From Candidatus Poribacteria bacterium (GTDB lineage Bacteria; Poribacteria; WGA-4E; WGA-3G): 64,000 bases of DNA. Below, one piece after another: positions 44,563 through 61,946 of the stretch; within the stretch, counting starts at the first letter, position 1, and the number at the start of each line of letters is the position of its first letter. The stretch lies in the NCBI GenBank assembly GCA_028820635.1, contig JAPPIG010000108.1, forward strand, positions 113,733-177,732. The letters are read 5' to 3'. Position numbers and translations under genes: made by a program. Below the pieces are notes generated by a model. It was not told the DNA's origin. It saw only the letters and a program-made list of their open reading frames with translations, and made no database searches.

Positions 44563-46160
44563 TATTTCGTCTGTGCCTCCTCTTCAATCAGTTGTAGGGT
44601 TGCGGTTTCGACTTTCAGAATAACAGGGTCTTGAGTTTCACCATCAATAATTACTTGTCCAACCTCTGGCGTATTGTCAGATTCATTTACTTTTACTTTT
44701 TCAGTAACCACACCCACTGATGCTTTCATCGGTTTCAGGAATGTATTCGGATGTACACCAATCCATACAATGAAAAGCAGTATCGGCAGTAAGACAACTA
44801 TTTCACGCGGTTTCAGGTCAGGCAAAGATGCGTTTGTGTTGTCTGGTGTACCAAACATGACCCGCTGGAACATCCATAGCATATAAACTGCTGCCAAGAT
44901 TACGCCTGTTGTTGCGAAGACCACGTACCATTTGGAGAATGCCCCGCCAACAAAACTGCCAAGCAATATCATAAATTCACCTACGAATCCGTTGAGTCCC
45001 GGCAGTCCGATGGATGACAGTGTTACAATCAAAAAGATGGTAGCGAAGATAGGCATTTTCTTTGCCAGTCCACCGAAGTCAACGATCATTCGGCTGTGCC
45101 GCCGTTCATAAATCATGCCGACCAAAAGGAACAGTGCGCCAGTGCTTAATCCGTGATTGATCATTTGCAAAACGCTTCCCTGAATACCTAAATGACTTTT
45201 TGAAAAAAGACCTAATACTACGAAACCGAGGTGACTGACACTGGAATATGCGACAAGTTTTTTCAGGTCCGGTTGTACCATTGCTACTAATGCCCCGTAA
45301 ATTATACCGATAATTGCAAGTGGCACTATCCAAGGTGTAGCGTCAGCTGCAGCTTGTGGGAAAAGCGGTAGGCAGAAGCGGACTATCCCGTACGTCCCCA
45401 TTTTAAGCAGCACCCCTGCCAGGATCACACTTCCGACTGTAGGTGCTTCAACGTGTGCATCTGGTAGCCATGTATGGAATGGGAAAAGAGGCACTTTAAT
45501 CGCAAAAGCAATGAAAAATGCAAGGAATAATAGATAGGAATGATCAAATGTGCCTTCTGTTGCTAATAGTGTTACGAGATCAAAGCTGTTACCGTTTTGG
45601 AAGTATAGTGCTAAAATGCCGACTAACATGAGCGCACTGCCTGCCATTGTGTAAAGTACGAACTTGATAGTGGCATAGATTCTACGTTCACCACCCCATA
45701 TTCCGATAAGGAAATACATCGGGATTAACATTGCCTCCCAGAACACAAAGAACAAGAATAGGTCTAAGGCACAGAAAACACCCAGCATTCCAGTTTCCAG
45801 CGCGAGGAGCGACATCATAAAACCGCTCAATCCTTTCTCAACCGAATTCCAAGCGGCGAGAATACATATTGGCGTTAGGAAAGTTGTAAGTAGCACTAAC
45901 CACAACGAAATACCGTCAATGCCGATGTGGTAACTTATACCTAAACCGGCAATCCACGGCAGTTTCTGGTAGAGTTGTGAGTCAGTTTGGAAACCATCAA
46001 TTCCTGCCTCAAATCCGGTGTAAAGCCCTATTGAGACAACGAATGTCAACAAACTGATGACGAGCGCGATGCCTTTAATAGCAGATGCGCCCATATTTCT
46101 GAGCAATGCTATCGCTATCACACCAAGCAGTGGTAAAAAAATAACTATTGAAAGTAGCAA
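44562..46160 (-). CDS. nuoM: NADH-quinone oxidoreductase subunit M
   Basis: 532-aa NuoM/ND4 family antiporter-like subunit (…WLPDAHVEAPT…). Confidence 0.9.
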   Translation of the reverse strand: MLLSIVIFLPLLGVIAIALLRNMGASAIKGIALVISLLTFVVSIGLYTGFEAGIDGFQTDSQLYQKLPWIAGLGISYHIGIDGISLWLVLLTTFLTPICILAAWNSVEKGLSGFMMSLLALETGMLGVFCALDLFLFFVFWEAMLIPMYFLIGIWGGERRIYATIKFVLYTMAGSALMLVGILALYFQNGNSFDLVTLLATEGTFDHSYLLFLAFFIAFAIKVPLFPFHTWLPDAHVEAPTVGSVILAGVLLKMGTYGIVRFCLPLFPQAAADATPWIVPLAIIGIIYGALVAMVQPDLKKLVAYSSVSHLGFVVLGLFSKSHLGIQGSVLQMINHGLSTGALFLLVGMIYERRHSRMIVDFGGLAKKMPIFATIFLIVTLSSIGLPGLNGFVGEFMILLGSFVGGAFSKWYVVFATTGVILAAVYMLWMFQRVMFGTPDNTNASLPDLKPREIVVLLPILLFIVWIGVHPNTFLKPMKASVGVVTEKVKVNESDNTPEVGQVIIDGETQDPVILKVETATLQLIEEEAQTK

Positions 46161-46191: not shown

Positions 46192-46617
46192 TCAACCGGA
46201 ACCAATAATCATCAATAATACCGAGTCCATCCCAGATGACTCGGATGATTCTCTGCGGCGTGCCAATTCGCGACGACGCCTTGAATAAGTGCCACGAGGC
46301 ATTTTGCTCTGCCACCAAAACTTTAGTTTACGATTGAATTTCGATATTTCCTCAGACGACCTACTGCAGTTGTCCAGAACCCATGCCCCTAAACTAATAT
46401 CGTTGTCAATCCGGACAGATGCCTCCTGAAATGAATCCGCTGAAATGCCAAGGAAGGATAATATTCCAGTATCTTGTTCAGAATCAGCACCGTATTTATA
46501 ACTTCCAATTTCTCCTGCATGGGCAGCTCGTGCCTTATCTGTCAGTCTTGCAACACCGCAGATGCCAGCAACTTCTTTGTTTAGCAAATCCCGTGGTCGA
46601 AAAGTATTCTGTTTCAT
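46192..46617 (-). CDS. Small soluble protein, paralog 1 of a tandem pair between nuoL and nuoM. Possibly DUF5069-like; unverified.
   Basis: 141 aa. About 75% identical to the 46754..47200 product; shared text includes FRPRDLLN-E(V/I)AGICGVARLTDKARA-H-GEIGSYKYGADSEQDT-ILSFLGISA. Confidence 0.55.
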   Translation of the reverse strand: MKQNTFRPRDLLNKEVAGICGVARLTDKARAAHAGEIGSYKYGADSEQDTGILSFLGISADSFQEASVRIDNDISLGAWVLDNCSRSSEEISKFNRKLKFWWQSKMPRGTYSRRRRELARRRESSESSGMDSVLLMIIGSG

Positions 46618-46753
46618 CTTTTCCTCTGTTCGTATTTTGTAAAAAGAAATTTTATGGAAACTATTCTACATCACGAAACAATCAATTAGCAAAAATCCCT
46701 TCTAATAGGGTATACTCACTTTGTAGTAACAAAACTGCAAATCTCTATCTTTT

Positions 46754-47200
46754 CTATCTTTTGAAGATTTTCGATAGTAACCACCACTGAGGTGAAACCC
46801 AAAAAGGAATAGATGGTTCTTCAGCATTTAATTCGCGGCGGCGTTTTGAAAATCCATTTTGAGGCATTTTACGCTGCCACTGATGTTTCAACTTCCGATT
46901 GAACTTAGATACTTCCTCAGATGATTTATCACAGTTGTTCAGAATCCATGCACCCAGTTTGAGATCGTTGTTGAGTCTGACTGCTGCATCTTTGAAAACT
47001 TCCGCTGAAATACCGAGGAACGATAGAATCTCTGTATCTTGTTCAGAATCAGCACCGTATTTATAACTTCCAATTTCTCCTACATGGTCAGCCCGCGCTT
47101 TATCTGTCAGTCTTGCAACACCGCAGATGCCAGCAATTTCTTGATTTAGCAAATCCCGTGGTCGAAAATTACTCTGTTTCATTTCTTCCTCCGTTAGCAT
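46754..47200 (-). CDS. Small soluble protein, paralog 2 of the tandem pair
   Basis: 148 aa. See paralog 1. Confidence 0.55.
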   Translation of the reverse strand: MLTEEEMKQSNFRPRDLLNQEIAGICGVARLTDKARADHVGEIGSYKYGADSEQDTEILSFLGISAEVFKDAAVRLNNDLKLGAWILNNCDKSSEEVSKFNRKLKHQWQRKMPQNGFSKRRRELNAEEPSIPFWVSPQWWLLSKIFKR

Positions 47201-49618: not shown

Positions 49619-50167
49619 TTAGTTTTCAGTTTGGTTTTCGCGTTTTACCAAGACAATTACGCCAATCAATGCTGCCAACAAAATAAGCGAGGTAACCTCA
49701 AACGGTAAAAGGTATTTGCTGAACAAAAGTTCACCAATATCATAAGTTTCAATCGGATTATTAGTGAGAGCAGCTGCCTTTTCCTGTGCTGCTTCCGATC
49801 CAACCTCAGTATTATTGAGGGCATTCACCGCAATATAGATGCCTTGAGCAGCCAAGAGGATACCCAAAATTATCGCAACACCTTTCAGTTTCCCTGTGAG
49901 AGCACCTTTCGCAGAGAGTGTGCCAAGGTTCAGCAGCATAATTACAAAGAGGAACAATACCATGATTGCTCCAGCATACACAATAACCTGAACAGCAGCG
50001 ACGAAGTGTGCGCCCAAAATCACAAACAACCCTGCTTGTGCGAAAAACGTTACAATAAGCGAAAGCGCACTATATATCGGGTGCCGAAACGAGATAACAG
50101 CGATTGCACCAATTAGTGACACAGCACCAAAGATAAAAAATAGAATCATTTCTGGATTCATTTGCAC
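49619..50167 (-). CDS. nuoJ: NADH-quinone oxidoreductase subunit J
   Basis: 182-aa NuoJ/ND6 family protein. Confidence 0.85.
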   Translation of the reverse strand: MQMNPEMILFFIFGAVSLIGAIAVISFRHPIYSALSLIVTFFAQAGLFVILGAHFVAAVQVIVYAGAIMVLFLFVIMLLNLGTLSAKGALTGKLKGVAIILGILLAAQGIYIAVNALNNTEVGSEAAQEKAAALTNNPIETYDIGELLFSKYLLPFEVTSLILLAALIGVIVLVKRENQTEN

Positions 50168-50172
50168 GCCTC

Positions 50173-51411
50173 CTATTCTACTGCGTCCAAGCCGCGCAGT
50201 GGTGCTGCGGCGGGAGTGTTTTGCGCTGCAGATTTACTGTTATTGTCCATAGCAAGCATCCCTGCTACGATTGCTACGACAATAAACGCTGCAACTACAT
50301 TGCCAACACCTATCCAAAGACGATTACCTTTCGTTATTATATATAATGTGCCGGTAACAACGATTGACGATAAGGCAACAGGCAACAAGAATTTCCAACC
50401 GAAATTCATGAGTTGGTCATAGCGGAAACGCGGAAGTGTCCAGCGTACCCAGATGAAAACAAACAAGAAAATTCCTGTTTTAACAAAGAAGATAGCAAAC
50501 GAGATAAGTCCAGCAAGTACGGATCCCTCTCCACCTATGTTTTCCAATCCGAAAAAGTGCCAACCGCCTAAGAACAGTGTTACAACCACTGCCGAACCGA
50601 CAATCATGCTCATATATTCTGCCATAAAGAATATAGCGAATTTCATACTGCTGTATTCGGTGTGGTAACCTGCGACAAGTTCCTGCTCTGCTTCAGCAAG
50701 GTCAAATGGCAATCGGTTTGTTTCTGCGAACACTGCTGTTGTAAACGCAAGAAATGCTGGAAAGTGTATCAGGAAATTCCATTCCCACGGGTTTGCACCC
50801 TGTCCCTCTGCAATTTCCCGAAGTTTGAGCGATTCGGAGAGCATCAAAACACCGATAATTGCCAATCCGAGCGTCAATTCGTAACTTATCATCTGCGCGG
50901 ATGAACGCAAACCACCCAAAAGTGAGTATTTGTTGTTTGATGCCCACGCACCTATAACAACACCATACACACCGAGAGACGTTATTGCTAAGATATATAA
51001 AATGCCTATATTGAGGTCAGCGATCTGAAGCGGAATTTCATATCCTGCTATCGTCATAGAACTTCCGAATGGTACGACAGCTACTATAATCATTGCTGGG
51101 ACCAGAAGCATTGCTGGGGCAAGCACGTAAAGTGGCTTATCTACGTGATTTGGGATGAGGTCTTCCTTAAAGAGGAACTTAATCCCATCTGCAATAGGTT
51201 GAAGTAGTCCTTGTGGTCCGACGCGATTCGGTCCGAGTCGATCCTGCATCCATCCGCTCACACGGCGTTCAGACCAAATCATCGCCATCACACCAATAAT
51301 CAGCAGATGTGCAACGATGAGAATTTTGACGATTGAACTGATGATAAAAACGTGAAGAGGTAAACTTTCCATATTTCTCCTTCTTGATGACGCGCAGATT
51401 GAAATTAGCAA
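50173..51411 (-). CDS. nuoH: NADH-quinone oxidoreductase subunit H (with N- and C-terminal extensions)
   Basis: NuoH/ND1 blocks (MQDRLGPNRVGP, LAEAEQELVAGYHTEYS) are present. At 412 aa it is about 70 aa longer than typical. The true start may be the internal MESLP. Confidence 0.85.
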   Translation of the reverse strand: MLISICASSRRRNMESLPLHVFIISSIVKILIVAHLLIIGVMAMIWSERRVSGWMQDRLGPNRVGPQGLLQPIADGIKFLFKEDLIPNHVDKPLYVLAPAMLLVPAMIIVAVVPFGSSMTIAGYEIPLQIADLNIGILYILAITSLGVYGVVIGAWASNNKYSLLGGLRSSAQMISYELTLGLAIIGVLMLSESLKLREIAEGQGANPWEWNFLIHFPAFLAFTTAVFAETNRLPFDLAEAEQELVAGYHTEYSSMKFAIFFMAEYMSMIVGSAVVVTLFLGGWHFFGLENIGGEGSVLAGLISFAIFFVKTGIFLFVFIWVRWTLPRFRYDQLMNFGWKFLLPVALSSIVVTGTLYIITKGNRLWIGVGNVVAAFIVVAIVAGMLAMDNNSKSAAQNTPAAAPLRGLDAVE

Positions 51412-51412
51412 G

Positions 51413-53068
51413 TTAGTCTAACTTAATGCCTGCATCTCCTATGTTTTGATGTGTTGCGTCACCGTAACCCGCTACATTCTCTGCAATTGCTATGGCAATT
51501 TCACCCGCGAAATGGTAATCAATTTCTCCACCGAGTCGCTTCGCAAGCTGCTGCGTAATCTGCCAATCTACTTGTGCTTCACCTGGAGGGTCAATTGTCT
51601 TTCGAATCCGTTGCACCCATCCGGTAGAATTGGTAAACGTGCCATCTTTTTCTGCGAAAGTTGTTCCCGGTAGTACCACATCGGCTAATTCCGTAACCGC
51701 TGATGGTAAAACATCTTGCACGATGAGAAAATCAACCTTTTCTAATGCGTTTCTTTCGGTATCTTCAAGCGCGCGTTCTGGCACACCACTAACGATATAA
51801 ACGACTTTCGCACTTGCGACCTTTTCCCAAAGTGCATCGCCTTCTAAAACGACATTTCCGTTTGCAGAGCCGAGTATTGTTCGCGCACCTGCGGTGTTTG
51901 GATTCTTGTCCGCTTCTATGGTAAATTGTGGGAATTTGTGCTCTTCACCGGGTAGTTGCCCAAAGAGCCCCAATTGTGTTGTCTTTAGCACATCGTGTGC
52001 AAACTGCTGTAAAACATAGTTGTCTTCATTCGTGCCTTGTGCAGAACCGATAACAACAATATCTGCAGCATCAACTTCGGATAAATTTTCGGTAATTAAC
52101 GTCAACGCATCTGCCCACTGCGTTGTTACAAGTTCGCCATCAACCTTCTTAAGGGGTAGTTGGAGACGGTCATCGCTGTTGACATAGTGGTAACCGAGTC
52201 TGCCATCATCACACATCCAGTGTTGGTTAATATCTTCATGGAAGCGAGGTTTGATACGGTACACACCGTCTGCCTTATACTCAACCGTGACATTACATCC
52301 GACGCTACATCCTGAACAGATACTATTCGCCTTTTCCATAAACCACGGACGAGATTTGAACAAAAAATCTTTGCTAATCAACGCACCGACAGGACAAATA
52401 TCAACGACATTTCCAGCGAGTTTATTATCAAGAAGTTGTATGGGAGTTCCTTCATGGCTTCGGGGAATGTCAATCTCATCGTGGGAACCGCGATTTATCA
52501 ACCCAAGTTCACCACTGCCTGAAACCTCATCACAGAATCGGATACACCGCGTGCAAACGATACAACGTGTGGAATAGAGCAAAATATCCGGCCCCAGGTC
52601 TTTTTTCGGAGGCACGTTTTTGACTTCTATATAGCGGCTTTTATCGTGCCCATGCCGGTAGCTGAAGTCTTGCAGGTCGCATTCACCTGCTTGGTCACAG
52701 ACGGGGCAATCAAGAGGATGATGTACGAGCAAGAATTCCAAAATATCTTCTCTTGCCTTTATGACACGGGAACTGTCTGTTCGGACGATAGCGTCATATT
52801 TTTCTTCTAACTTTCTTTCTGGTGGTGCGGATCGGACTGTCAGTGTACAACCCGTAGCTAATTGTCGGGCTGGACCGATTGTACCTGGGGGAGCACCTGG
52901 TATGGGACCGTAAGGTTCAACGAGGCACATCCGGCAATTCGCTGGACGACTCAACCCTGCGTGGTAGCAGTAGTGAGGCACCTCAATGCCGTGTTCCCGT
53001 GCAGCCTCAACTATATTTGTTCCGTCTTCAACCTCTATTTCAAGGTCATTCAGTTTAATAAACGCCAT
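51413..53068 (-). CDS. nuoG: NADH-quinone oxidoreductase subunit G (short 551-aa form)
   Basis: Has the N-terminal 2Fe-2S and 4Fe-4S cysteine clusters (CYHAGLSRPANCRMCLVE, …CPVCDQAGEC…, CIVCTRCIRFC). It lacks the long C-terminal domain of the 900-aa forms. Confidence 0.85.
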   Translation of the reverse strand: MAFIKLNDLEIEVEDGTNIVEAAREHGIEVPHYCYHAGLSRPANCRMCLVEPYGPIPGAPPGTIGPARQLATGCTLTVRSAPPERKLEEKYDAIVRTDSSRVIKAREDILEFLLVHHPLDCPVCDQAGECDLQDFSYRHGHDKSRYIEVKNVPPKKDLGPDILLYSTRCIVCTRCIRFCDEVSGSGELGLINRGSHDEIDIPRSHEGTPIQLLDNKLAGNVVDICPVGALISKDFLFKSRPWFMEKANSICSGCSVGCNVTVEYKADGVYRIKPRFHEDINQHWMCDDGRLGYHYVNSDDRLQLPLKKVDGELVTTQWADALTLITENLSEVDAADIVVIGSAQGTNEDNYVLQQFAHDVLKTTQLGLFGQLPGEEHKFPQFTIEADKNPNTAGARTILGSANGNVVLEGDALWEKVASAKVVYIVSGVPERALEDTERNALEKVDFLIVQDVLPSAVTELADVVLPGTTFAEKDGTFTNSTGWVQRIRKTIDPPGEAQVDWQITQQLAKRLGGEIDYHFAGEIAIAIAENVAGYGDATHQNIGDAGIKLD

Positions 53069-53135: not shown

Positions 53136-54611
53136 CTACAGGTCAGCAAACTCCTTTGGAATAAACCGCTGTTGATACGCGTAATTTTCCTCTGGCGGCA
53201 CTGTCGCTTCAGCAACAGGTAGCGTAACCAATTTACCTTCTCGTATTGCGGCTTCAAATTCAGGTCTGAACTTGCGCATATAACTGACTGCCGGCCACGA
53301 AACAGCAATACCAAAGACGCAGATAGTATTCCATGTCATTGTATCCACATTCGCAATGTTGTTCGCAACGTTTTCCAGCAGATCAAGGTCTTCGTAGATT
53401 TCCTCTGTTTCACCAGTATCACCCCATCTGCCGCTTTCGGTGACACCGAACTTGGGTCGTGTGATAGTGGTTTGTCTGCCTTCTCCATCGGCAATCCGTT
53501 GGACAATATCACGGACCCACGGTGTGCCCCATCGACACGGTGTGCACTGCCCACACGATTCATGCGCGTAGAATTTCATGATATTGAGTAAGCAGTCAAC
53601 GATATTCCGGGTCTCATTCATTACAATGATGCCACCCGAACCTAACATTGATTTTGCAAGTGTGAGCGATGTAAAATCAAGTCGTGTATCTAACTCGTAA
53701 TGCGTCAAAATCGGTGCGGAACTTCCACCAGGGATCACCGCTTTGACCTCTTCACCACGCAAACCGCCTGCTACCTCAATAAGCTCTGTGCTTGTCAAAC
53801 CGAGTTCCAATTCATATACACCCGGTTCGTTGACATCGCCGCTGATACAGTAGAGTTTTGTGCCTGTATTTGGATCCGCTTTTGGTGGGTCAAATCGCGT
53901 ATCACCGTACGTCGGTCCCATCTGTGTGTACCATTCTACACCATTCCCTACGATAAAGGGTAGGTTGCACAAGGTCTCCACATTCTGCACGACGGTGGGT
54001 TTCATAAACACACCTTGAACAGCAGGGAAAGGCGGTTTGTTGCGAGGTTGCCCTCGTTTCCCCTCAAGGGATTCAATCAATCCTGTCTCTTCACCACAAA
54101 TATATGCACCAGCACCCGGATGTGAATAGATGTTAATATTTAGCCCCGTGTCTCGAACATTTTCACCAAGGTAACCCTGTTCGTAAGCCTCCTTAATGGC
54201 GGTATCTAACATCTTTTTTCCAAGTGTGAATTCACCGCGAATGTAAACATAAGTGGTCTCAATTCCCATTGCGTAGCAACAGATTAAGATACCTTCTATC
54301 AACAGATGTGGGTTTTTCTCTAAGACGTAGCGGTTGCTGAAGGTGCCGGGCTCGCTTTCGTCAGCGTTGCAACAAAGATAGCGCGGCTCAATATCCCTTG
54401 GGACAAAACTCCATTTTTCCCCAGTAGAAAAGCCGGCACCGCCTCTGCCTTTCAACCCCGCATCCCACACCATTTGCGCGATTTCTTCAGGTTGATATTC
54501 GGCAATCGCCTTTTCAAAACGGGTGTAACCCTCATATTGTCTAAAGACATCAAAGGTGTTTATATTCGGTACATCCAGATGCTCGTAGAGAATCCGTCTT
54601 TCTTGAACCAT
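53136..54611 (-). CDS. nuoF: NADH-quinone oxidoreductase subunit F
   Basis: 51-kDa subunit blocks (GRGGAGFSTGEKW, CGQCTPCR). Length is 491 aa. Confidence 0.9.
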   Translation of the reverse strand: MVQERRILYEHLDVPNINTFDVFRQYEGYTRFEKAIAEYQPEEIAQMVWDAGLKGRGGAGFSTGEKWSFVPRDIEPRYLCCNADESEPGTFSNRYVLEKNPHLLIEGILICCYAMGIETTYVYIRGEFTLGKKMLDTAIKEAYEQGYLGENVRDTGLNINIYSHPGAGAYICGEETGLIESLEGKRGQPRNKPPFPAVQGVFMKPTVVQNVETLCNLPFIVGNGVEWYTQMGPTYGDTRFDPPKADPNTGTKLYCISGDVNEPGVYELELGLTSTELIEVAGGLRGEEVKAVIPGGSSAPILTHYELDTRLDFTSLTLAKSMLGSGGIIVMNETRNIVDCLLNIMKFYAHESCGQCTPCRWGTPWVRDIVQRIADGEGRQTTITRPKFGVTESGRWGDTGETEEIYEDLDLLENVANNIANVDTMTWNTICVFGIAVSWPAVSYMRKFRPEFEAAIREGKLVTLPVAEATVPPEENYAYQQRFIPKEFADL

Positions 54612-54699: not shown

Positions 54700-55224
54700 C
54701 TAATTGGGAAGTTGCTCTAATATTTCATCAACCTTTTCGGGTGTCAAATTTTTATATAAATCGTCATTCACCATGATAACGGGGGCGACATCACACGATG
54801 CAAGGCACTCAACTTTCATCAAGGTGAACTTGCCATCATCAGTAGTGCCTTTTGCGAGATTTGTTTCTGATGCCACGTCAGTACTCAGTTTTTCTTTCAG
54901 ATGATCCAAAACTACTTTACAGTCGCGCAATGCACACGGCAGCGTATGACAGACGCGAATAACATATTTCCCCACCGGTTCCTCAAAGAACATCGGATAG
55001 AAGGTTACCACGTCTTTTACCTTCATCACAGAAAGTTCCAACAGTTCCGCTACATACTTCATGACTGCAGGCGTAATATAACCTTCCTGCCGTTGTGCCA
55101 GGTGGAGCGTTGGCAGCATCGCTGCTTCTTTGACGGGATACCGACCAATCAGTTCGTCAAATTCTCGTTTGTTTTCTTCGTTAAACTGAAATGGTGTTTC
55201 GATTTGTATTATTTCATCTGACAT
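54700..55224 (-). CDS. nuoE: NADH-quinone oxidoreductase subunit E
   Basis: 24-kDa subunit thioredoxin-like 2Fe-2S protein (…VCHTLPCALRDC…ECLASCDVAPV…). Confidence 0.9.
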   Translation of the reverse strand: MSDEIIQIETPFQFNEENKREFDELIGRYPVKEAAMLPTLHLAQRQEGYITPAVMKYVAELLELSVMKVKDVVTFYPMFFEEPVGKYVIRVCHTLPCALRDCKVVLDHLKEKLSTDVASETNLAKGTTDDGKFTLMKVECLASCDVAPVIMVNDDLYKNLTPEKVDEILEQLPN

Positions 55225-55376
55225 CTATGTTTTCCTTTTCTTGGCTATCAGCCGTCAGCAACAGTGTTAGCATCTACTACGGATAACACCCTTCAATTGC
55301 CTCATAAATGTTTTCAAGCAATTCTTCAAAAGTGTTACTTTGTGTAGCACAAGCGGTGATTTTTAGTTCATGGTAT

Positions 55377-56177
55377 TTAACTGCGTGCTTTCAAACGTGC
55401 AATTTCTTCACGAAGTTGTGCGACTTCTGCTTCAGCGTTTTCTGCGCGTGTGGCTTCTTGCTCTGCGCGTGTTTCTGCATTTTCTCGTGCGATGGTTTCC
55501 TGTTCAGCGTGTGCCTCTGCAATTTCTGTGCGTTCTGCACGTGTCTGAAGCCATTCACCCGCAACAGGATCATAAATCGCTATCTCTCCATCGCGAATAT
55601 GGAAATCCAAATCCAAAACTGAGGCACGAAAACCTCCCCGTTCATCCGCAGAAATAGCGACATACTCACCATCCACTAACGTAAATCCCATCATCGGAGA
55701 TGGTAAATACAACCCCTCTGCATCATATAAGAAGTAATTCTGTATTCCCAATGAAGCATAAACATCCTTCTTCTCACCTAAGTCTTTATCGTAAGTGCTT
55801 TTACTGGAGAACTCCATCACGAAATCGGGTGCTTTTCCTTCCTCCCATGTTTTATACGTCAGACGCAGCTTTGGGTTTATACCAAAACAGACGAGCACAT
55901 CCGGAGATATAGACTTCCGGGGATCCCCTTCGCTGTAATACATCATTAGGTCGCCAGAGATATAGACTTCCGGATTTTGTGCGAAATGTGTCTCAAGTGC
56001 TTGCAGCGTCCATATTAGTAATCTTAAATGATAATCGCTTGCTGCCATCGGCTTTCCATCTTCAGAAGGGTAAAGGTCAACATCGTCAGTAGGGACATAA
56101 GGAATAAAGGTATCTTTTGAATACGGGCGTGCCATTATGTTTCTCCTTTGTTGTCCGATGCGTAAAAACGAAGACAA
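55377..56177 (-). CDS. Uma2-family (DUF820) restriction-endonuclease-fold protein, copy A. The true start is probably the internal MARPY Met at about 56135.
   Basis: Uma2 core (…DVLVCFGI…PDFVMEFSS…) with an A/E/R-rich coiled C-terminal tail. It is about 97% identical at the DNA level over roughly 600 bp to copy B. Confidence 0.7.
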   Translation of the reverse strand: MSSFLRIGQQRRNIMARPYSKDTFIPYVPTDDVDLYPSEDGKPMAASDYHLRLLIWTLQALETHFAQNPEVYISGDLMMYYSEGDPRKSISPDVLVCFGINPKLRLTYKTWEEGKAPDFVMEFSSKSTYDKDLGEKKDVYASLGIQNYFLYDAEGLYLPSPMMGFTLVDGEYVAISADERGGFRASVLDLDFHIRDGEIAIYDPVAGEWLQTRAERTEIAEAHAEQETIARENAETRAEQEATRAENAEAEVAQLREEIARLKARS

Positions 56178-56199
56178 TTAGTTTCATGTAATTTTAGTA

Positions 56200-56859
56200 T
56201 CACTTTTTCTTGAGAACCATTTTCTGATCAGAATAAGTCAGCGTTAACGTATCTCCTGTGACGTTCCATGTATATTCAATTCCGCTGTCGAATATAAAAT
56301 CTGAAGGATTCTGTTCAAATCCACTTTTCGATTCCGCTGCCAAATCCGCTTCTAACTGTTCTACGGTTTTACCTACTATTTGTGCTGCCCATACCTCTTT
56401 TGGTTCAAGCGTTACTTCAACATCCATTTTGATATCTTCTGTAGTGATTTTTAAGGTTTCCTCATCTGCAATATACATTCCTGCTATAGTTTGAGTGAGT
56501 TTCTGGGTCATTGACGAAGCAGGTGGTCCCGGGTATTTCTCTGATACCTCGAACGCTAAATTACCTGTCAAAGAACCATCATCTTCAAAAACCCAATTAT
56601 TTGAAATAAGTGTGGATTCTTGTTCAGCTTCTATATCGTCCGATTGTTCAGGTGCGACATTTTGGGAGAAAAATGTTTCAAACATTTCACCATTAATTGA
56701 GACAATTTCCCAAGAACTTCCAACAAAGTCGAAGTCCACAATAACATCTTCTTTTTTCTTTTCTTCATCTTCACTGCAACCGACCGCGAAAATGGAGAAC
56801 AAACTTATCAAGACTATAGCCGAGGTTGTAAAAAGTAGTTTCATGCTAATTTCAGCCAT
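56200..56859 (-). CDS. Lipoprotein of unknown function (219 aa), flanked by the two Uma2 genes
   Basis: Signal peptide plus lipobox (FAVGCSE), followed by an acidic, serine-rich mature region. Confidence 0.55.
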   Translation of the reverse strand: MAEISMKLLFTTSAIVLISLFSIFAVGCSEDEEKKKEDVIVDFDFVGSSWEIVSINGEMFETFFSQNVAPEQSDDIEAEQESTLISNNWVFEDDGSLTGNLAFEVSEKYPGPPASSMTQKLTQTIAGMYIADEETLKITTEDIKMDVEVTLEPKEVWAAQIVGKTVEQLEADLAAESKSGFEQNPSDFIFDSGIEYTWNVTGDTLTLTYSDQKMVLKKK

Positions 56860-56973
56860 GAGTTAGTATTTTCCCAAACTGAATCCTGTTTTTCTCAGGG
56901 TCTCTCATGTCAAAACACGCGAGACCATCTTCATTCTTCAAAGAATTATACCGCCAAGATGCATAATTGTCTG

Positions 56974-57864
56974 TTACTCCGTACGCAGGCGTTTAATTTC
57001 TGCTAAAGCCTTAGCGAGTTCTGCCTCAGCGTTTTGCCGTGCGTTAGTTTCTTGTTCGGCGTGTGCTTCAGCGTTTTCTGCGCGTGCTTCAGCGTTTTCT
57101 GCGCGTGCTTCAGCAATTTCTGTACGTTCTGCACGCGTCTGAAGCCATTCACCCACAATAGGATCATAAATCGCTATCTCTCCATCACGAATATGGAAAT
57201 CCAAATCCAAAACCGAAGCGCGAAAACCTCCTCGTTCATCCGCAGAAATAGCGACATACTCACCATCCACTAACGTGAACCCCATCATCGGAGATGGTAA
57301 ATACAAACCCTCTGCATCATATAAGAAGTAATTCTGTATTCTCAATGAAGCATAAACATCCTTCTTCTCGCCTAAGTCTTTATCATAAGTGCTTTTACTG
57401 GAGAACTCCATCACGAAATCGGGTGCTTTTCCTTCCTCCCATGTTTTATACGTCAGACGCAGCTTTGGGTTTATACCAAAACAGACGAGCACATCCGGAG
57501 ATATAGACTTCCGGGGATCCCCTTCGCTGTAATACATCATTAGGTCGCCAGAGATATAGACTTCCGGATTTTGTGCGAAATGTGTCTCAAGTGCTTGCAG
57601 CGTCCATATTAGTAATCTTAAATGATAATCGCTTGCTGCCATCGGCTTTCCATCTTCAGAAGGGTAAAGGTCTATATCGTCAGTAGGGGCATAAGGAATA
57701 GAGGTATCTTTTGCATAAGGGCGTGCCATTATGTTTCTCCTTAAAAAGTTTATACTACTTTCGTTCCTATTTCCCAACTTCATCCATAAGTTAGTATTTT
57801 CCCACAAACTGAATTCGGTTTTTCTCAGGGTCTCTGATATCAAAAATCCCATAACCACCATCAT
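56974..57864 (-). CDS. Uma2-family (DUF820) protein, copy B. The annotated long ORF probably starts at the internal MARPY Met, about 57730.
   Basis: Near-identical to copy A across the core. Its C-terminal tail is built from 21-bp DNA repeats (gcgtgcttcagcgttttctgc x about 3) that encode AENAEARAENAEARAENAEA. Confidence 0.7.
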   Translation of the reverse strand: MMVVMGFLISETLRKTEFSLWENTNLWMKLGNRNESSINFLRRNIMARPYAKDTSIPYAPTDDIDLYPSEDGKPMAASDYHLRLLIWTLQALETHFAQNPEVYISGDLMMYYSEGDPRKSISPDVLVCFGINPKLRLTYKTWEEGKAPDFVMEFSSKSTYDKDLGEKKDVYASLRIQNYFLYDAEGLYLPSPMMGFTLVDGEYVAISADERGGFRASVLDLDFHIRDGEIAIYDPIVGEWLQTRAERTEIAEARAENAEARAENAEAHAEQETNARQNAEAELAKALAEIKRLRTE

Positions 57865-58147
57865 TTTCCAAAGGTCTTAAACGTAACCCCTTTGACTTTA
57901 AATGTTGGTGCATTGCATTCACACTTTCAACCTGAAGCATTAACTTTTGCCTACCCTCATTTGGTTTACTTGCACTATGGAGACACAGTTTACACTCGCC
58001 TGTATCAAACCGGTAAAAACGATTTTCTGGAAATGGTTGATCTTCTTCTGGTGTTAATCCGATTACATCTCTATAAAATGCAATGACCTTTTTCATATCT
58101 TTTACAAAAAGCATGACTCCGCCAAGACTAACTTTGATTTCTGACAT
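57791..58147 (-). CDS. VOC-family (glyoxalase/bleomycin-resistance/dioxygenase fold) small protein
   Basis: 118 aa. VMLFVKDMKKVIAFYRDVIGL is a typical VOC beta-alpha-beta-beta-beta N-terminus. It may overlap the Uma2-B ORF only because that ORF is over-extended. Confidence 0.6.
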   Translation of the reverse strand: MSEIKVSLGGVMLFVKDMKKVIAFYRDVIGLTPEEDQPFPENRFYRFDTGECKLCLHSASKPNEGRQKLMLQVESVNAMHQHLKSKGLRLRPLENDGGYGIFDIRDPEKNRIQFVGKY

Positions 58148-58215: not shown

Positions 58216-59412
58216 TTACCTATCCAACTCTCCGGCAATTACATTTAAACTTCCCAACACAGCCACCGTATCCGATACCATGCCGCCTTCCAACATGTGC
58301 GGCAGTGCTTGGAAATGGAAGAAACTCGGTGGACGAATTCTAATACGATAGGCAGTCCCGCTTCCATCGCTCACAATATAAAACCCTAATTCTCCATTTG
58401 GCGATTCTGTGGCGCAATAATGGTCACCTTTGGGAGGCTGCACACCGTGTCCATCCATAACAATTTTGAAATGATGGATTAATCCTTCTATATGCCCATA
58501 AGCATCCGATTTGTCTGGCATCATGATTTTGTTGTCTTCTACACTAAATGGACCATCCGGCAGATTATCCAATGCTTGTCCAACGATACCGCAGCTTTGA
58601 ATCATCTCCTCCATTCGGACTAAATATCGGTCATACGCATCACCGTTGGTCCCAACTGGCACATCAAATTTTATTTCATTGTAAGAGGAATAAGGCTCCG
58701 CCTTGCGGATATCGTGTGCGATACCTGTTGCACGTAGACAGGGACCGGTTAACCCATAATTAATCGCATCTTCAGAGGAAATTGTGCCAACCCCTTTTGT
58801 TCTATCCATCCAAATTCGGTTGCGGGTTAACAACGTATGCGTTTCTTTCAACGCTTTTGGGAAATTGGTAATGAAATCACGGGTATCCGTTTCAAATCCA
58901 TCATAAAGATCGCGAAAAACACCACCGACACGGGTGTAACTTGTTGTCAACCGTGCGCCTGTGGTTTTCTCAAAAATACTGTAGAGTTTTTCGCGCTCGC
59001 GGAAACTGTAGAGAAATACTGAAAACGCCCCTAAATCCAATGCTGCAGTACCAAGCCATAGCAGATGGTCAGCCAGTCGAGAAAGTTCTGCCATCAAAAT
59101 TCGGATGTATTGACACCGCTTTGGCACTTCAATACCGAGCAATTGTTCCACTGCAAGCACATACCCAAAATTGTTAGACAATGGCGACAGATAATTCATC
59201 CGGTCAGTAACAACGATGTACTGATTGTAGTCTAAATGTTCACCCAGTTTCTCAAACCCAGTATGTAAGTATCCAGCGTGTGGTGTTGCCTTCAAAATGG
59301 TTTCACCATCAAGTTCCAATACGATACGAAGGGTGCCGTGTGTAGCAGGGTGTTGCGGTCCGAAGTTGAGAACCATCTTCTCGCCTGTTGTGCGTTCCAT
59401 CCCACCTTGCAT
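58216..59412 (-). CDS. nuoD: NADH-quinone oxidoreductase subunit D
   Basis: 49-kDa subunit (…FGPQHPATHGTLR…). Length is 398 aa. Confidence 0.9.
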   Translation of the reverse strand: MQGGMERTTGEKMVLNFGPQHPATHGTLRIVLELDGETILKATPHAGYLHTGFEKLGEHLDYNQYIVVTDRMNYLSPLSNNFGYVLAVEQLLGIEVPKRCQYIRILMAELSRLADHLLWLGTAALDLGAFSVFLYSFREREKLYSIFEKTTGARLTTSYTRVGGVFRDLYDGFETDTRDFITNFPKALKETHTLLTRNRIWMDRTKGVGTISSEDAINYGLTGPCLRATGIAHDIRKAEPYSSYNEIKFDVPVGTNGDAYDRYLVRMEEMIQSCGIVGQALDNLPDGPFSVEDNKIMMPDKSDAYGHIEGLIHHFKIVMDGHGVQPPKGDHYCATESPNGELGFYIVSDGSGTAYRIRIRPPSFFHFQALPHMLEGGMVSDTVAVLGSLNVIAGELDR

Positions 59413-59424
59413 AGATTGCTCCTT

Positions 59425-59547
59425 TTATAAAATTGACTTACGCTTTTCCGTTTTGAGTTGTTGATATTTATTTTGAACAAGTCCTAAAACTTTGCATACA
59501 ACACCTATCCAAACACAAGCGAAAAAAGTTAAAATAATTACACCCAT
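59425..59547 (-). CDS. Candidate small hydrophobic peptide (40 aa, MGVIILTFFACVWIGVVCKVLGLVQNKYQQLKTEKRKSIL) in the nuoC-nuoD spacer
   Basis: I translated this ORF manually. It has a GAGG motif 8 nt upstream of the ATG, is single-TM-like, and falls below the ORF-track length cutoff. Confidence 0.25.
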   Translation of the reverse strand: MGVIILTFFACVWIGVVCKVLGLVQNKYQQLKTEKRKSIL

Positions 59548-59591
59548 AATTCTAACCTCAATATTTTCAATACTATTCGTTGCATTTTAAA

Positions 59592-59729
59592 CTATTGTGG
59601 GGGTGAATTAAAGTGTTTATACAACCACCGCACAAGATCCGCGCAAAAGTAAACAAACGCCCAGAATACATAGACTGTCCCGATAACCAAGAATGACATT
59701 TTGACGGTATTCAAAATCTTTCTTTTCAT
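59592..59729 (-). CDS. Candidate small hydrophobic peptide (45 aa, MKRKILNTVKMSFLVIGTVYVFWAFVYFCADLVRWLYKHFNSPPQ) in the nuoC-nuoD spacer
   Basis: I translated this ORF manually. It has no clear Shine-Dalgarno site and is single-TM-like. Confidence 0.2.
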   Translation of the reverse strand: MKRKILNTVKMSFLVIGTVYVFWAFVYFCADLVRWLYKHFNSPPQ

Positions 59730-59843
59730 TTTTTCGAAATACCAGTTCTAAATGTATCAATGAACCATTCATTAGCGTTTGATTTTAATGTAGTTTCCGT
59801 CTATCCAACCTATAACAAAATGTCTTCTTTTTCAAACTCAAGG

Positions 59844-60422
59844 CTACACGTTCTGCTTTTCAAAATTGAAACTTTCGCGCTCACCACGCCCACGTAGCGG
59901 ATAATCCTTGCGAAGTGGATGTCCCTCAAAATCATCCGGCATTAAAATTCGACGCAGATCAGGGTGTCCTTCAAAGTCTATTCCGAACATATCGTGGGTT
60001 TCCCGCTCCAACCAGTTGGCACCCTTCCATAACTTCGTCACCGAGGGAACCTTCAAATCTTTTTCATGCACTGGCACTTTAACCCGAATACGAGGCGTTT
60101 CCCCTTCAAAGGTGTAAAGGTGATAGACAACCATGAATCGGGCATAGTCATACTGCATCAATTCCGATTCCAAATTGGAATTGTCAACTGCTGTTACGTC
60201 AATAAGAAACGTATATGCAAGTTCTGTCTTTAGATACTCTAACAGCGCGTAAATGTGTTCTTTGCCTACAACAACAGCAACACCGTTACTGGTTTCTGTA
60301 TCTGCTAAGAGGACATCTGCAAACTTTTCTTGTAGTTTTTCAAGTACAAGCGGTTGCGTTTCTTCCGTAATCTCTTTTTCTTCATTCATTATATGCGACC
60401 TCAGAACCTTTGGGGAGCTCAC
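59844..60422 (-). CDS. nuoC: NADH-quinone oxidoreductase subunit C
   Basis: 30-kDa subunit, 192 aa. It is not fused to nuoD. The true start is probably the internal MNEEK Met. Confidence 0.85.
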
Positions 60423-60930
60423 CTTTTTGGATTTGCCGTTGTACTTGCATCACAGCATCAATCAAATCTTCTGGTCGTGGTGGGCATCCGGGAATATAGA
60501 CATCAACAGGAAGGAATTGGTCAACGCCTTGTATTAAGGTATAAGTATCAAAGACACCGCCGCAGGATGCACATGCACCCATTGAGATAACCCACTTCGG
60601 TTCTGGCATCTGGTCATAAATACGTTTTAGTACCGGCATCATTTTAATTGAAATCCGTCCTGAAACGATGAGTAGGTCAGATTGGCGTGGAGAGAAACGA
60701 ATTGCCTCAGAACCGAATCGAGAGAGGTCGAATTTGGAAGCCAAGGTCGCCATCATCTCAATCGCACAGCAGGCGGTACCGAACGGCATCGGCCACAAGG
60801 AATTCTTTCGTCCCCAATTGACAACTTTGTCAATAGTTGTTGTGATGATATTACCATCAGTTTGTTCGGTGCTTGATCCACTTTGTATATGGGTTTTGGC
60901 TAATCCCATGTTAAGCCTCCTTTTTTCCAA
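60382..60930 (-). CDS. nuoB: NADH-quinone oxidoreductase subunit B
   Basis: 20-kDa subunit with conserved 4Fe-4S cluster-ligand blocks ([28 protein letters not shown]). Confidence 0.9.
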
Positions 60931-61265
60931 GCGTAGATGTAGCCGAGAAGGAGAATACCGATAAACACCAGCATCTCAACTAAAATAAATAAACCGTTAT
61001 CTGCAGACATTTTCTTAAAGACCACTGCCCACGGATAGAGAAAGACGACTTCAATATCAAAGATGATAAAGAGCATAGCGATGAGGTCGAACCGGATGGA
61101 GAACCTTTGTCTGGCATCACCGACCGGTTGCACACCAGATTCGTAGACAGATAGTTTAACACGTGTGGGTTTTTTAGGTCCAAGAAGATGGGTCAGGGCG
61201 AGATTAACACCTGCAAAGAGGACTGCAAAGAGTCCTAAAAATACTATTGGAAGATAATCTAACAT
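60900..61265 (-). CDS. nuoA: NADH-quinone oxidoreductase subunit A
   Basis: NuoA/ND3 family protein with 3 TM segments, 121 aa. It is the first gene of the cluster. Confidence 0.85.
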
Positions 61266-61559
61266 TTGCTCTAATCTATTTAAGCCTCCGGCAAACGACA
61301 GATATTAACGTCATCTATTATTACTTTTGTCGGATGGACTTCTGACGTTGCTAATAATTAACTTAGTTTGTGTTCAAATTTGCAAACGAATTTGTTAAAC
61401 GTGCTTATAATTTTACATATTTAGAGAAAAGTGTCAAGTTTTTTTTATAAATATTACGATTTTTTGAAATATAATAAAAAATGAGAAATAAGATTATTTA
61501 TGTAGGTTTGTAAGGTTTTTATAGAAGACATAACATTTGTCGCTATTCAGTGGTATGCT
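61266..61559 (-). promoter_or_regulatory. AT-rich leader or promoter region upstream of nuoA
   Basis: About 290 bp of roughly 75% A+T non-coding sequence precedes the first nuo gene. No specific -35/-10 assignment was attempted. Confidence 0.3.
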
Positions 61560-61946
61560 TCACCATTGCCGATAATAGGTTAAAATAATAACAGGGACAG
61601 CAAGCGTGTCATCAAGATATTGAAAACCACTGCAATCTGGTTCTGTAAAAACCTGTAATAATTCTAAAGAAAATTCCCAGGATTTACGTGTTAACTTCCA
61701 TCTGAATTGATTTTTGGTCTTATCTATCAAAACTGCTCCATCATCTTGTTCCGCAATCTGTGCCGAAAGTTTACACCCGTCTACCGGAGTTATAAATGGC
61801 AAAGTGTGAATATCAAGCGTTTCACCAGAACCCAATATGACATCTTGTATCGCTTTTTGTAATTGTTCTGCCTTCGTTGGAATGATTGGAGACATAATTA
61901 TCAATGGGCTGTAATGACCCACATCTGGTATATATTCAAGTTCCAT
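61560..61946 (-). CDS. Hypothetical protein (128 aa)
   Basis: Intact ORF with no recognisable motifs. Confidence 0.4.
   Translation of the reverse strand: MELEYIPDVGHYSPLIIMSPIIPTKAEQLQKAIQDVILGSGETLDIHTLPFITPVDGCKLSAQIAEQDDGAVLIDKTKNQFRWKLTRKSWEFSLELLQVFTEPDCSGFQYLDDTLAVPVIILTYYRQW

Follow-up and report, generated by a model that had tools for sequence, protein, structure and literature searches.

A flexible accessory islet between nuoD and nuoE in a Poribacteria complex I operon

We analyzed a 64-kb stretch of DNA (hereafter the window) from a sponge-symbiotic Candidatus Poribacteria bacterium, in which the complex I genes nuoA-N lie on the minus strand and a block of other genes at 55377-58147, on the same strand, sits between nuoD (58216-59412; Pfam Complex1_49kDa, 9e-115) and nuoE (54700-55224; PF01257, 6e-51). 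The order along that strand is nuoD, VOC, Uma2-B, lipoprotein, Uma2-A, nuoE, with every gene transcribed in the direction of the operon. The VOC (glyoxalase-fold) gene (57791-58147) encodes 118 aa and matches PF00903 at 1e-12, while Uma2-B (56974-57729, 251 aa; PF05685, 8.5e-15) and Uma2-A (55377-56135, 252 aa; PF05685, 9.2e-16) each join a nuclease domain to a coiled-coil tail, of B type and A type, respectively. Between the two Uma2 genes lies a gene for a 219-aa lipoprotein (56200-56859; lipobox FAVGC). A preliminary description of this DNA had named these genes, their families and their shared orientation with the operon, and all of this was borne out, with both Pfam families scoring above their gathering scores. 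We found in addition two pseudogene relics on the minus strand that it had not reported, one of a VOC gene at 56863-56964, between Uma2-B and the lipoprotein gene, and one of a HicB-like antitoxin gene at ~55248-55371, between Uma2-A and nuoE.

The locus was compared with a numbered set of others. L001, an ENA metagenome scaffold of 194 kb, has an unchanged NuoD and an identical block, whereas L002, a second contig with an unchanged NuoD protein, has a differing block. A scan of one genome per species gave 80 loci (L003-L082), 78 of them titled Poribacteria and two titled "uncultured bacterium," with NuoD identities of 89-100%. Many of these species loci lie in single contigs of megabase scale or on complete chromosomes, apparently from long reads. 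The closest species-level relative is L003 (JAPPCZ010000060.1). A metagenome scan with Uma2-A returned 20 loci, of which one, from a close relative (L087), also lies in the nuoD-nuoE gap and the rest are distant and say little about gene context. L086 comes from a 6.6-Mb contig (ENA ERZ25067264 ctg836690).

In a tblastn search, 78 of the 80 species loci have the VOC gene at the nuoD-nuoE junction, the exceptions being the complete locus L010, which has no VOC, and L039, whose contig ends 95 nt after nuoD. The smallest nuoD-nuoE gaps (391-540 nt, for example in L078, L028, L057, and L074) hold VOC alone, and in L078 its stop codon lies 12 nt ahead of the nuoE ATG. The median pairwise ratio of nonsynonymous to synonymous substitution rates (dN/dS) is 0.087 for VOC, compared to 0.031 for NuoD and 0.047 for NuoE, and VOC is thus under strong purifying selection. 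Since it is present in nearly all loci and ends so close to nuoE in the smallest ones, nuoD-VOC-nuoE appears to be the ancestral and normal Poribacteria operon, in which VOC is selectively maintained. The block as a whole can hence not be the single cassette that was first proposed, its VOC gene being a constrained resident of the operon.

The VOC subfamily is small, with 73 clusters in 5.8 billion proteins, and the source names given are all Poribacteria except for one metagenome-assembled genome labeled Gemmataceae. Two motifs, CxLCLHSASKPNxGRQK and DPExN.IQ, are invariant. Membership in the superfamily is clear (PF00903, 48.9 bits against a threshold of 20.6), and the AlphaFold2 model, with a mean predicted local distance difference test score (pLDDT) of 94.6, consists of two beta-alpha-beta-beta-beta modules whose top PDB matches are VOC proteins with a template modeling (TM) score of ~0.75. 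The nearest solved neighbors are uncharacterized glyoxalase-family proteins and antibiotic-binding proteins, all of them generic superfamily matches. No specific enzyme-family threshold was reached, the best NCBIfam scores being 17-25 bits against cut-offs of 114-321. We rejected glyoxalase I (lactoylglutathione lyase) and other named VOC enzymes on this equivalog score and on the apparent lack of the canonical His/Glu/His/Glu metal ligands. At the putative ligand positions, assigned by reading the alignment against known motifs, His is absent from strand 1 (LFVKD) and an invariant Gln (IQF) in the last strand takes the place of the usual Glu. The gene comes in two allele classes of 118 and 113 aa, each of which is represented in the closest relatives and found with Uma2, in a distribution that does not follow the nuo flanks.

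Uma2/DUF820 proteins are abundant and, to our knowledge, have remained uncharacterized for 20 years. Both window proteins pass the gathering score of 27 for the family (PF05685, DUF820, COG4636), with 55.1 and 58.2 bits, and NCBI and JGI give close homologues the name Uma2 family endonuclease. A search of solved structures with Uma2-A gave weak matches, 9y1l (E value of 0.025) and 6okh (E value of 0.47), aligned across a PD...E.xS core; the alignment to the Uma2-like chain 9y1l spans ...PD..(25 aa)..APD..E..S..., the core expected of a PD-(D/E)XK-type nuclease. Residues D79, E99, K101, E108, D118, and K122 are invariant in 26 relatives. With these invariant core residues and a dN/dS of 0.22, both genes appear to be intact and to encode functional, predicted PD-(D/E)XK-type nucleases under purifying selection. 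The family is described in the literature as a predicted PD-(D/E)XK-type nuclease of unknown or merely predicted function (PMC3424549, PMC1274311), expanded in cyanobacteria and Thermus (PMC3424549, PMC1274311, PMC9403480), and our literature search found no paper linking Poribacteria with Uma2. Related Uma2 genes with 52-65% identity occur at unrelated Poribacteria loci, where they lie co-directionally in gene clusters and sometimes form tandem pairs beside toxin-antitoxin-like genes. In L083/L084 (6001-12104), for example, a tandem pair 60-65% identical to Uma2-A adjoins a nucleotidyltransferase/NTase_sub_bind pair and a third Uma2 gene follows 4 kb on, all co-directional and within a radical-SAM/SPASM, PCP_red, CopD cluster.

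The direct repeat of ~600 bp and 97% identity that had been noted between the two Uma2 genes is real; the first 600 nt are 97% identical, and the proteins are 96.6% identical across 203 aa. The homology starts exactly at a shared ribosome-binding site (RBS), AAGGAGAAACATAATG, and stops at the stop codon; the true start of Uma2-B follows the RBS AAGGAGAAACATA. The longer open reading frames (ORFs) that carry the Pfam matches (56974-57864 for Uma2-B and 55377-56177 for Uma2-A, both on the minus strand) start in upstream sequence that is not homologous. Because the homology begins at the shared RBS, the real proteins are 251 aa (B) and 252 aa (A) long and not ~270 aa as originally proposed. Over the last ~150 nt, which encode Ala/Glu/Arg-rich coiled-coil tails, the two genes are just 75% identical, and the Uma2-B tail contains a 21-nt tandem repeat in 3.2 copies (57055-57122).

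One account of such a pair would be a recent tandem duplication of one Uma2 gene whose copies have not yet diverged. Nuclease domains of 97% identity and a synonymous divergence (dS) of only 0.11 fit with it, and in a DNA tree of this domain the copies pair by genome, each being the nearest relative of the other in L001 (97%), L003 (98-99%), L010 (99%), and L023 (96%). The tails and flanks tell a different history. Each tail is 85-89% identical to the same-position copies of other genomes, well above the identity between the two tails of the window. The Uma2-B tail ends in ...AELAKALAEIKRLRTE, common to the first-position copies in L003 and L005 (pattern ...AELAKALAEI.RLR in L001, L003, and L005), whereas the Uma2-A tail ends in ...AQLREEIARLKARS, common to the nuoE-proximal copies in L002, L003, and L005 and to the single copies in L006, L012, and L044 (pattern ...AQLREE.ARLKARS in all of these and in L001). 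The downstream flanks are likewise position specific, with the sequence after L001_B and L003_B being 96% identical over the 130 nt compared. The layout of two copies around a lipoprotein gene is also present in L002, L003, and L005, whose nuo flanks are up to 14% different. Finally, the 21 differences between Uma2-A and Uma2-B in the first 615 nt all lie toward both ends, and nt 58-344 contain none. This perfect tract of 287 nt (57386-57672 in Uma2-B and 55792-56078 in Uma2-A, coordinates derived from both start codons), with differences clustered on either side, is typical of conversion and was probably left by a recent gene-conversion event. We therefore regard a recent duplication as quite improbable and do not take the 97% identity as a mark of recent duplication or transposition. 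Tails and flanks that group by position, nuclease domains that group by genome and the perfect tract together indicate that the two genes are long-standing positional paralogues homogenized by intralocus gene conversion. Relatives with one copy have the upstream spacer of B joined to the tail of A, which suggests that recombination inside the repeat also switches the locus between one-copy and two-copy states.

The lipoprotein has the N-terminus MKLLFTTSAIVLISLFSIFAVGC, in which G27 is invariant and C28 is kept in at least 90% of 18 homologues. No family was found for it in Pfam, NCBIfam, or PADLOC; we found 19 clusters of homologues, whose source names, where given, are uninformative. Its AlphaFold2 model (pLDDT of 77) is beta-rich, and a PDB fold search returned no match at an E value of <1e-3 and none better than a TM score of 0.35. 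The gene is present in six loci in seven copies, and in all seven a Uma2 gene follows after a conserved spacer of 62-65 nt, which makes the two a two-gene module.

The VOC relic joins an N-terminal MHLGGIIL to a C-terminal ...EDGLACFDMRDPEKNRIQF, with an internal deletion, a 2-nt deletion near the end and a frameshift. Three direct repeats are shared with the intact VOC gene, and tblastn gave 57% identity over 28 aa. Its residues fit the 113-aa allele class and not the adjacent 118-aa allele, so the layout of the window looks like the merger of a VOC(118)-Uma2 haplotype and a VOC(113)-lipoprotein-Uma2 haplotype, with later decay of the redundant VOC. The HicB-like relic is homologous to an intact ORF in L016, which matches HicB_lk_antitox at 7e-9, and to partial copies in L007, L008, and L012, all at the same site just upstream of nuoE. 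Compared to an intact HicB-like antitoxin (PF15919), the window copy is internally deleted and carries stop codons, and no HicA partner is present.

The species loci have nuoD-nuoE intervals of 391 to 5447 nt, and that of L086 is 8358 nt long. Uma2 nuclease domains of the window lineage (at least 170 of 205 aa aligned) are carried by 18 of the 80 species loci, each with one copy or two, and L086 has four; degenerate copies or tail fragments are present in L002, L013, and L017, with a tail relic in L016. This lineage has no match in the 8-kb flanks on either side in the 80 loci. A second Uma2 lineage, 45% identical, occupies the nuoD|VOC junction in L004, L021, L086, and L087. Other recurrent cargo includes two more lipoprotein families, a 76-aa ORF, a WYL-HNH protein, and a ParB_N-domain protein. 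Every cargo family that is recurrent (and protein-like) or supported by Pfam lies on the operon strand, while some clusters of minus-strand ORFs have the look of spurious antisense frames. Most relatives lack Uma2 and the lipoprotein, and some have VOC alone between nuoD and nuoE; the full Uma2-lipoprotein-Uma2 layout is found again in three further assemblies (L002, L003, and L005, with nuo flanks 86-100% identical). The insertion inferred in the preliminary description thus stands in part. The Uma2 and lipoprotein genes are accessory and non-canonical, and the VOC gene is fixed; the comparison with relatives that was to decide between an ancient arrangement and an inserted one favors the former for VOC, and the layout common to three other assemblies is neither very recent nor fixed.

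Two loci show further rearrangements. In L003, an insertion sequence (IS; 9710-10654, DDE_Tnp_1_3, 1e-66) lies between VOC and Uma2-B, co-directional with the operon, and replaces most of the conserved VOC-Uma2 spacer. In L086 (703-10782), the 8.4-kb interval contains four Uma2 genes with two lipoprotein-Uma2 modules, a 339-aa ORF apparently fusing VOC and lipoprotein, and a duplicated 5' fragment of nuoE at 9543-9668.

L002 matches the window at 99-100% identity from nuoB to mid-nuoD. The first 854 nt of its nuoD contain 3 mismatches and the final 343 nt contain 32 (91% identity), all of them synonymous, which leaves the two NuoD proteins identical; in VOC the identity is down to 74%. We place an apparent breakpoint between the two sequences at ~58558. 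Behind its new VOC allele, L002 keeps a 3' fragment of a window-type VOC. Such a breakpoint in a near-identical locus points to turnover by recombination anchored in conserved flanks. Relics found across the loci derive from VOC (both classes), HicB and the 5' end of nuoE.

The 97% direct repeat bracketing a cargo gene had suggested the geometry of a composite transposon, in which the Uma2 copies would act as terminal direct repeats mobilizing the lipoprotein gene into the operon, and the family is indeed multicopy and patchily distributed. However, a repeat search of the window yielded nothing beyond the Uma2 repeat, the repeats of the VOC relic, and short pairs at chance level; the ends of the Uma2 repeat have no inverted repeats, and the block borders, where target-site duplications were to be looked for, have no direct repeats. 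Within 8 kb, the Pfam annotation of the 17-kb locus shows no transposase or integrase; the only IS found was that of L003, a separate insertion in a relative. The homology of the two copies runs from RBS to stop codon, their tails differ and are each orthologous by position to copies in other genomes, and the sequence beside Uma2-B is a VOC relic and not a duplicated target. The flanking genes themselves encode Uma2 nucleases and not transposases, and no transposase activity has been demonstrated for this predicted PD-(D/E)XK-type nuclease family (PMC3424549). We therefore rejected the composite transposon, which we consider extremely unlikely. An integron cassette array or a cluster of attC sites lacking integron-integrases (CALIN) was rejected as well, with no integrase in the 17-kb locus and no attC-like RYYYAAC...GTTRRRY pairs (45-150 nt spacing, both strands), where 0.8 would be expected by chance in what is a simple pattern test. 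An Rfam scan of the whole window matched no family.

We next consider transcription through the interval. The distance from the preceding gene to the nuoE start codon is 0-12 nt in relatives, with the Uma2 stop codon directly abutting the nuoE ATG in L036. These spacings in L036 and L078 leave no room for a private nuoE promoter and argue for co-transcription there. The only conserved element upstream of nuoE across 75 loci is the RBS (AAGGAAAACATAGATG, ~15-20 nt). No terminator-like site was found in any spacer of the scanned region, and the matches of the promoter and terminator scan were no more common than in shuffled sequence. The only strong promoter-like site (TTGACA-16-TAAAAT, 61437-61410, minus strand) lies upstream of nuoA, in an AT-rich stretch (61250-61750, GC content of ~0.30) that holds the best sigma-70-like match and is the likely promoter region of the operon. 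Co-transcription through the interval, with read-through of the cargo, is thus plausible on the layout of the genes.

Taken together, we think it probable that the nuoD-nuoE interval is a recombination hotspot with two layers and not a transposon. The first layer would be VOC, ancestral, selectively maintained, and co-transcribed with nuoD and nuoE. In the second, co-directional accessory genes would be gained, lost, and exchanged in the spacers on both sides of VOC, chiefly on its nuoE side; in the window, this islet would comprise Uma2-B, the decayed VOC copy of the other class, the lipoprotein-Uma2-A module and the decayed HicB-like gene. Turnover may occur by homologous recombination, or by recombination with homology at one end, with DNA of related Poribacteria, anchored in conserved nuoD, VOC, Uma2, and nuoE sequences, and would not involve transposition or site-specific integration. 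Gene conversion would hold the Uma2 nuclease domains at ~97% identity, with the same repeat able to switch the copy number between one and two. Most likely, the cargo benefits from read-through transcription of a highly expressed operon and would not be part of complex I. It is known that NuoE, NuoF, and NuoG are quite often encoded outside the core operon, and they are considered to have joined an 11-subunit ancestor late (PMC3144371), which would make the nuoD/nuoE seam a natural weak point.

Several points weigh against this interpretation or limit it. The description of VOC as fixed covers the clade sampled by the 80 loci, with NuoD identities of at least 89%, which is only a part of the phylum. 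Some of the mosaicism, for example between L001 and L002, could come from chimeric assembly of co-occurring strains in metagenome-assembled genomes. The same variability is, however, also present on complete long contigs and apparently long-read chromosomes, and the recurrence of the Uma2-lipoprotein-Uma2 layout in L002, L003, and L005 argues that the arrangement is not an assembly artifact. Repeated independent duplication is formally possible as the cause of the within-genome similarity of Uma2 in every genome. The scan for promoters used a sigma-70 model that may not fit Poribacteria promoters, and an internal promoter or terminator is possible. Finally, the excess of VOC identity in three distant loci, L036, L044, and L081, is only ~10 points over the flanks, with no sharp recent tract.

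These three loci bear on a different explanation, in which Uma2 would be a homing-like selfish nuclease that cuts nuoD-VOC-nuoE alleles lacking it, repair then copying in Uma2 together with a VOC allele and cargo. Like homing genes, the window lineage is an intact nuclease gene with conserved acidic and lysine residues, lies between highly conserved genes and is polymorphic among relatives, with no copies in the 8-kb flanks; the degenerate copies in L002, L013, and L017 and the tail relic in L016 resemble a cycle of gain, decay, and loss, and the second Uma2 lineage sits at the adjacent junction. The VOC allele also appears to travel with Uma2 into distant backgrounds. Among ~55 distant loci, a close window-type VOC is found only in L036, L044, and L081 (89-92% DNA identity compared to 80-82% in the flanks), with intermediate identities in L032 (86%) and L082 (80%), and these three are exactly the distant loci with a full Uma2. 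Co-transfer of VOC is thereby suggested, but the identity excess is modest and co-conversion of the flanks weak; a sliding-window comparison of L006 with L044, L036, and L012 is usable for the central region only, being partly misaligned outside nuoD-nuoE. Furthermore, Uma2 occurs with both VOC allele classes, its relatives at unrelated loci imply that site specificity is not strict, a dN/dS of 0.22 would be expected of functional proteins in general, and the data are also explained by ordinary recombination at a hotspot. For no Uma2 protein is a target or a cleavage activity known (PMC3424549, PMC1274311). We consider homing unlikely, as well as its wider form, in which Uma2/DUF820 proteins would be free-standing homing-type nucleases living in operons on read-through, with the window lineage targeting the nuoD-VOC-nuoE seam, spreading among co-resident Poribacteria by break-induced recombination and dragging along a VOC allele and the lipoprotein gene. 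If this were nevertheless true, the DUF820 genes beside hoxEF in cyanobacteria would reflect a shared target preference.

A defense function could be added to the hotspot, with which it overlaps, if anti-phage or anti-plasmid genes including Uma2 were collecting there. Uma2-A and Uma2-B match the PADLOC models PDC-S03 at 5e-8 and 1.6e-7, and the junction cargo includes WYL-HNH, ParB_N-domain, and HicB-like genes and a 442-aa ORF that by appearance resembles a DNA methyltransferase with an HNH-like tail. The nuoE|nuoF junction of relatives holds methyltransferase-like and Cys-rich HNH-like ORFs, again judged by sequence appearance, and a study of cyanobacterial populations included Uma2 genes in its set of putative restriction genes (PMC9716671). 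Nevertheless, the PADLOC matches are weak (~30 bits) and to untested candidates, the PDC-S03 models as a whole giving E values of 5e-8 to 6e-3 and 14-31 bits in a library without a curated cut-off, and our literature search found no paper describing PDC-S03. Much of the cargo consists of lipoproteins, small ORFs, and WD40- or leucine-rich-repeat-like proteins without a defense signature, and no cognate methyltransferase lies beside Uma2 in the window. We consider a defense islet rather unlikely.

The inserted proteins might instead work with complex I as a co-opted accessory module. For VOC there are arguments in favor, namely its near-universal presence, kept position, strong constraint, and tight spacing to nuoE, and DUF820 genes are found inside or beside hoxEF, the homologues of nuoEF, in several cyanobacteria (PMC4963859). 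Set against this are the predicted nuclease nature of Uma2, its copy number of 0-4, and its absence, along with that of the lipoprotein, from most relatives. VOC itself has generic fold matches only and is missing from the complete locus L010, and neighborhood alone is no proof of physical association. We regard a co-opted module as very improbable and conceivable only for VOC, which may be a lineage-specific accessory or protective factor of Poribacteria complex I.

The other junctions of the nuo operon are unequally permissive. In the window, all on the minus strand, nuoA (60900-61265), nuoB (60382-60930), and nuoC (59844-60422) precede nuoD, and nuoF (53136-54611), nuoG (51413-53068), and nuoH (50173-51411) follow nuoE. 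Across the loci, the nuoA/B and nuoB/C junctions overlap and are almost invariant, while nuoC/D ranges over 11-3986 nt, nuoE/F over 3-2423 nt and nuoF/G over 8-540 nt, compared to 391-8358 nt for nuoD/E. The cargo at these junctions differs and is again almost all co-directional; its labels at C/D and E/F are a reading of sequence appearance only, without a family-library scan. Between nuoC and nuoD (for example, L007 1753-2361 and L040 6722-7423), there is an ORF with a Cu/Zn-superoxide-dismutase-like motif and a lipobox in 11 loci, along with leucine-rich-repeat-like and WD40-like ORFs and, in L040, a transposase-like ORF on the minus strand. Of 74 loci, 14 have up to 2.4 kb of extra sequence between nuoE and nuoF (for example, L008 10692-11573, L005 13785-14357, and L035 12742-14994), which contains an ORF resembling DNA methyltransferases (8 loci), a Cys-rich one with an HNH-like motif (7 loci), or a 750-aa WD40-like ORF, all co-directional. 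The nuoC-nuoD spacer of the window itself (59413-59843, 431 nt) holds two tiny hydrophobic ORFs, of ~45-51 aa (MKRKILNTVKMSFLVIGTVYVFWAFVYF...) and 40 aa (MGVIILTFFACVWIGVVCKVLG...); it is 99% identical in L003, partially present in L012, L017, L018, L026, and L032, and absent from the otherwise near-identical L002.

Further along the operon, nuoJ (49619-50167) directly follows nuoH with no nuoI in between, and no ORF on either strand of the window contains the double CxxCxxCxxxCP ferredoxin motif. NuoI must therefore be encoded elsewhere or be highly divergent. A tandem pair of DUF5069 genes (141 and 148 aa; PF16798, ~1e-16 each) lies co-directionally at the nuoL/nuoM junction (46192-47200). 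Between nuoM (44562-46160) and nuoN (41539-43008), the third Proton_antipo_M gene, lies a gene for a 494-aa CitMHS_2 "putative citrate transport" membrane protein (43078-44562; PF16980, 1e-175) whose stop overlaps the nuoM start region. Together with DUF5069, CitMHS_2, and the missing nuoI, the phylum-restricted and strongly constrained VOC gives a lead on a non-canonical composition of complex I.

For annotation, these results mean that the block is not to be read as a transposon or as one recent insertion, and that the part beyond VOC is cargo that varies between strains and species. The locus is a compact natural experiment, with an uncharacterized nuclease family in 0-4 copies, conversion, relics, and allele replacement between two conserved genes, which makes Uma2 mobility and homing-like behavior testable. 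Uma2 mobility and the conserved VOC protein are thus the two leads it offers. That several junctions of one essential operon tolerate co-directional inserts also bears on how sponge symbionts acquire and express accessory genes.

Among known systems, flexible genomic islets or integration hotspots are flanked by core genes and turn over by homologous or homology-facilitated illegitimate recombination. The window shares with them the conserved flanks, variable content, breakpoints in flanking genes, relics at the joints, and the lack of a dedicated integrase. It differs in lying inside a respiratory operon, in the operon orientation of all its recurrent or Pfam-supported cargo, and in the permissiveness of the C|D, D|E, E|F, and F|G junctions of the same nuo operon. 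The free-standing homing endonuclease genes of T4-like phages, seg and mob, are likewise stand-alone nuclease genes with their own RBS between conserved genes, polymorphic and, as hinted here, associated with co-transfer of neighboring alleles. Unlike these, Uma2 has no known target or cleavage and has related copies at other loci, resides on a bacterial chromosome rather than in co-infecting phages and offers weak evidence of biased transmission. Integron arrays resemble the block in being runs of short, co-directional, mostly uncharacterized ORFs that differ between relatives, and VOC-fold proteins are among their cassette products (PDB 3ey7 and 3ghj appear among the fold matches of VOC), but the block has neither attC-like sites nor an integrase within 8 kb and its spacers hold pseudogene relics. 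The nqo/nuo clusters of Paracoccus denitrificans and Rhodobacter capsulatus reportedly contain interspersed unidentified reading frames, which are said to lie in the same direction between nuo genes as here but to be stable in their lineage and to be neither Uma2 nor VOC; they show that inserted genes are tolerated in complex I operons.

The closest published precedent appears to be the hox operon of Synechocystis sp. PCC 6803, where the DUF820 gene sll1222 and a toxin-antitoxin pair lie inside hoxEFUYH as part of the transcription unit, and seven further strains have DUF820 or toxin-antitoxin genes clustered with hoxEF (PMC4963859). The homologues of HoxE and HoxF in complex I are NuoE and NuoF. 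In both cases Uma2/DUF820 and toxin-antitoxin material, here the HicB-like relic, are placed co-directionally in the operon of an NADH-linked redox enzyme. The cyanobacterial case, which was read as operon stabilization by toxin-antitoxin genes (PMC4963859), belongs to another phylum and enzyme, whereas the Poribacteria locus is set apart by a Uma2 copy number of 0-4, gene conversion, a conserved VOC, and lipoprotein cargo. The window is thus a well-documented flexible accessory islet inside a respiratory operon, with a precedent in the cyanobacterial hox operons.

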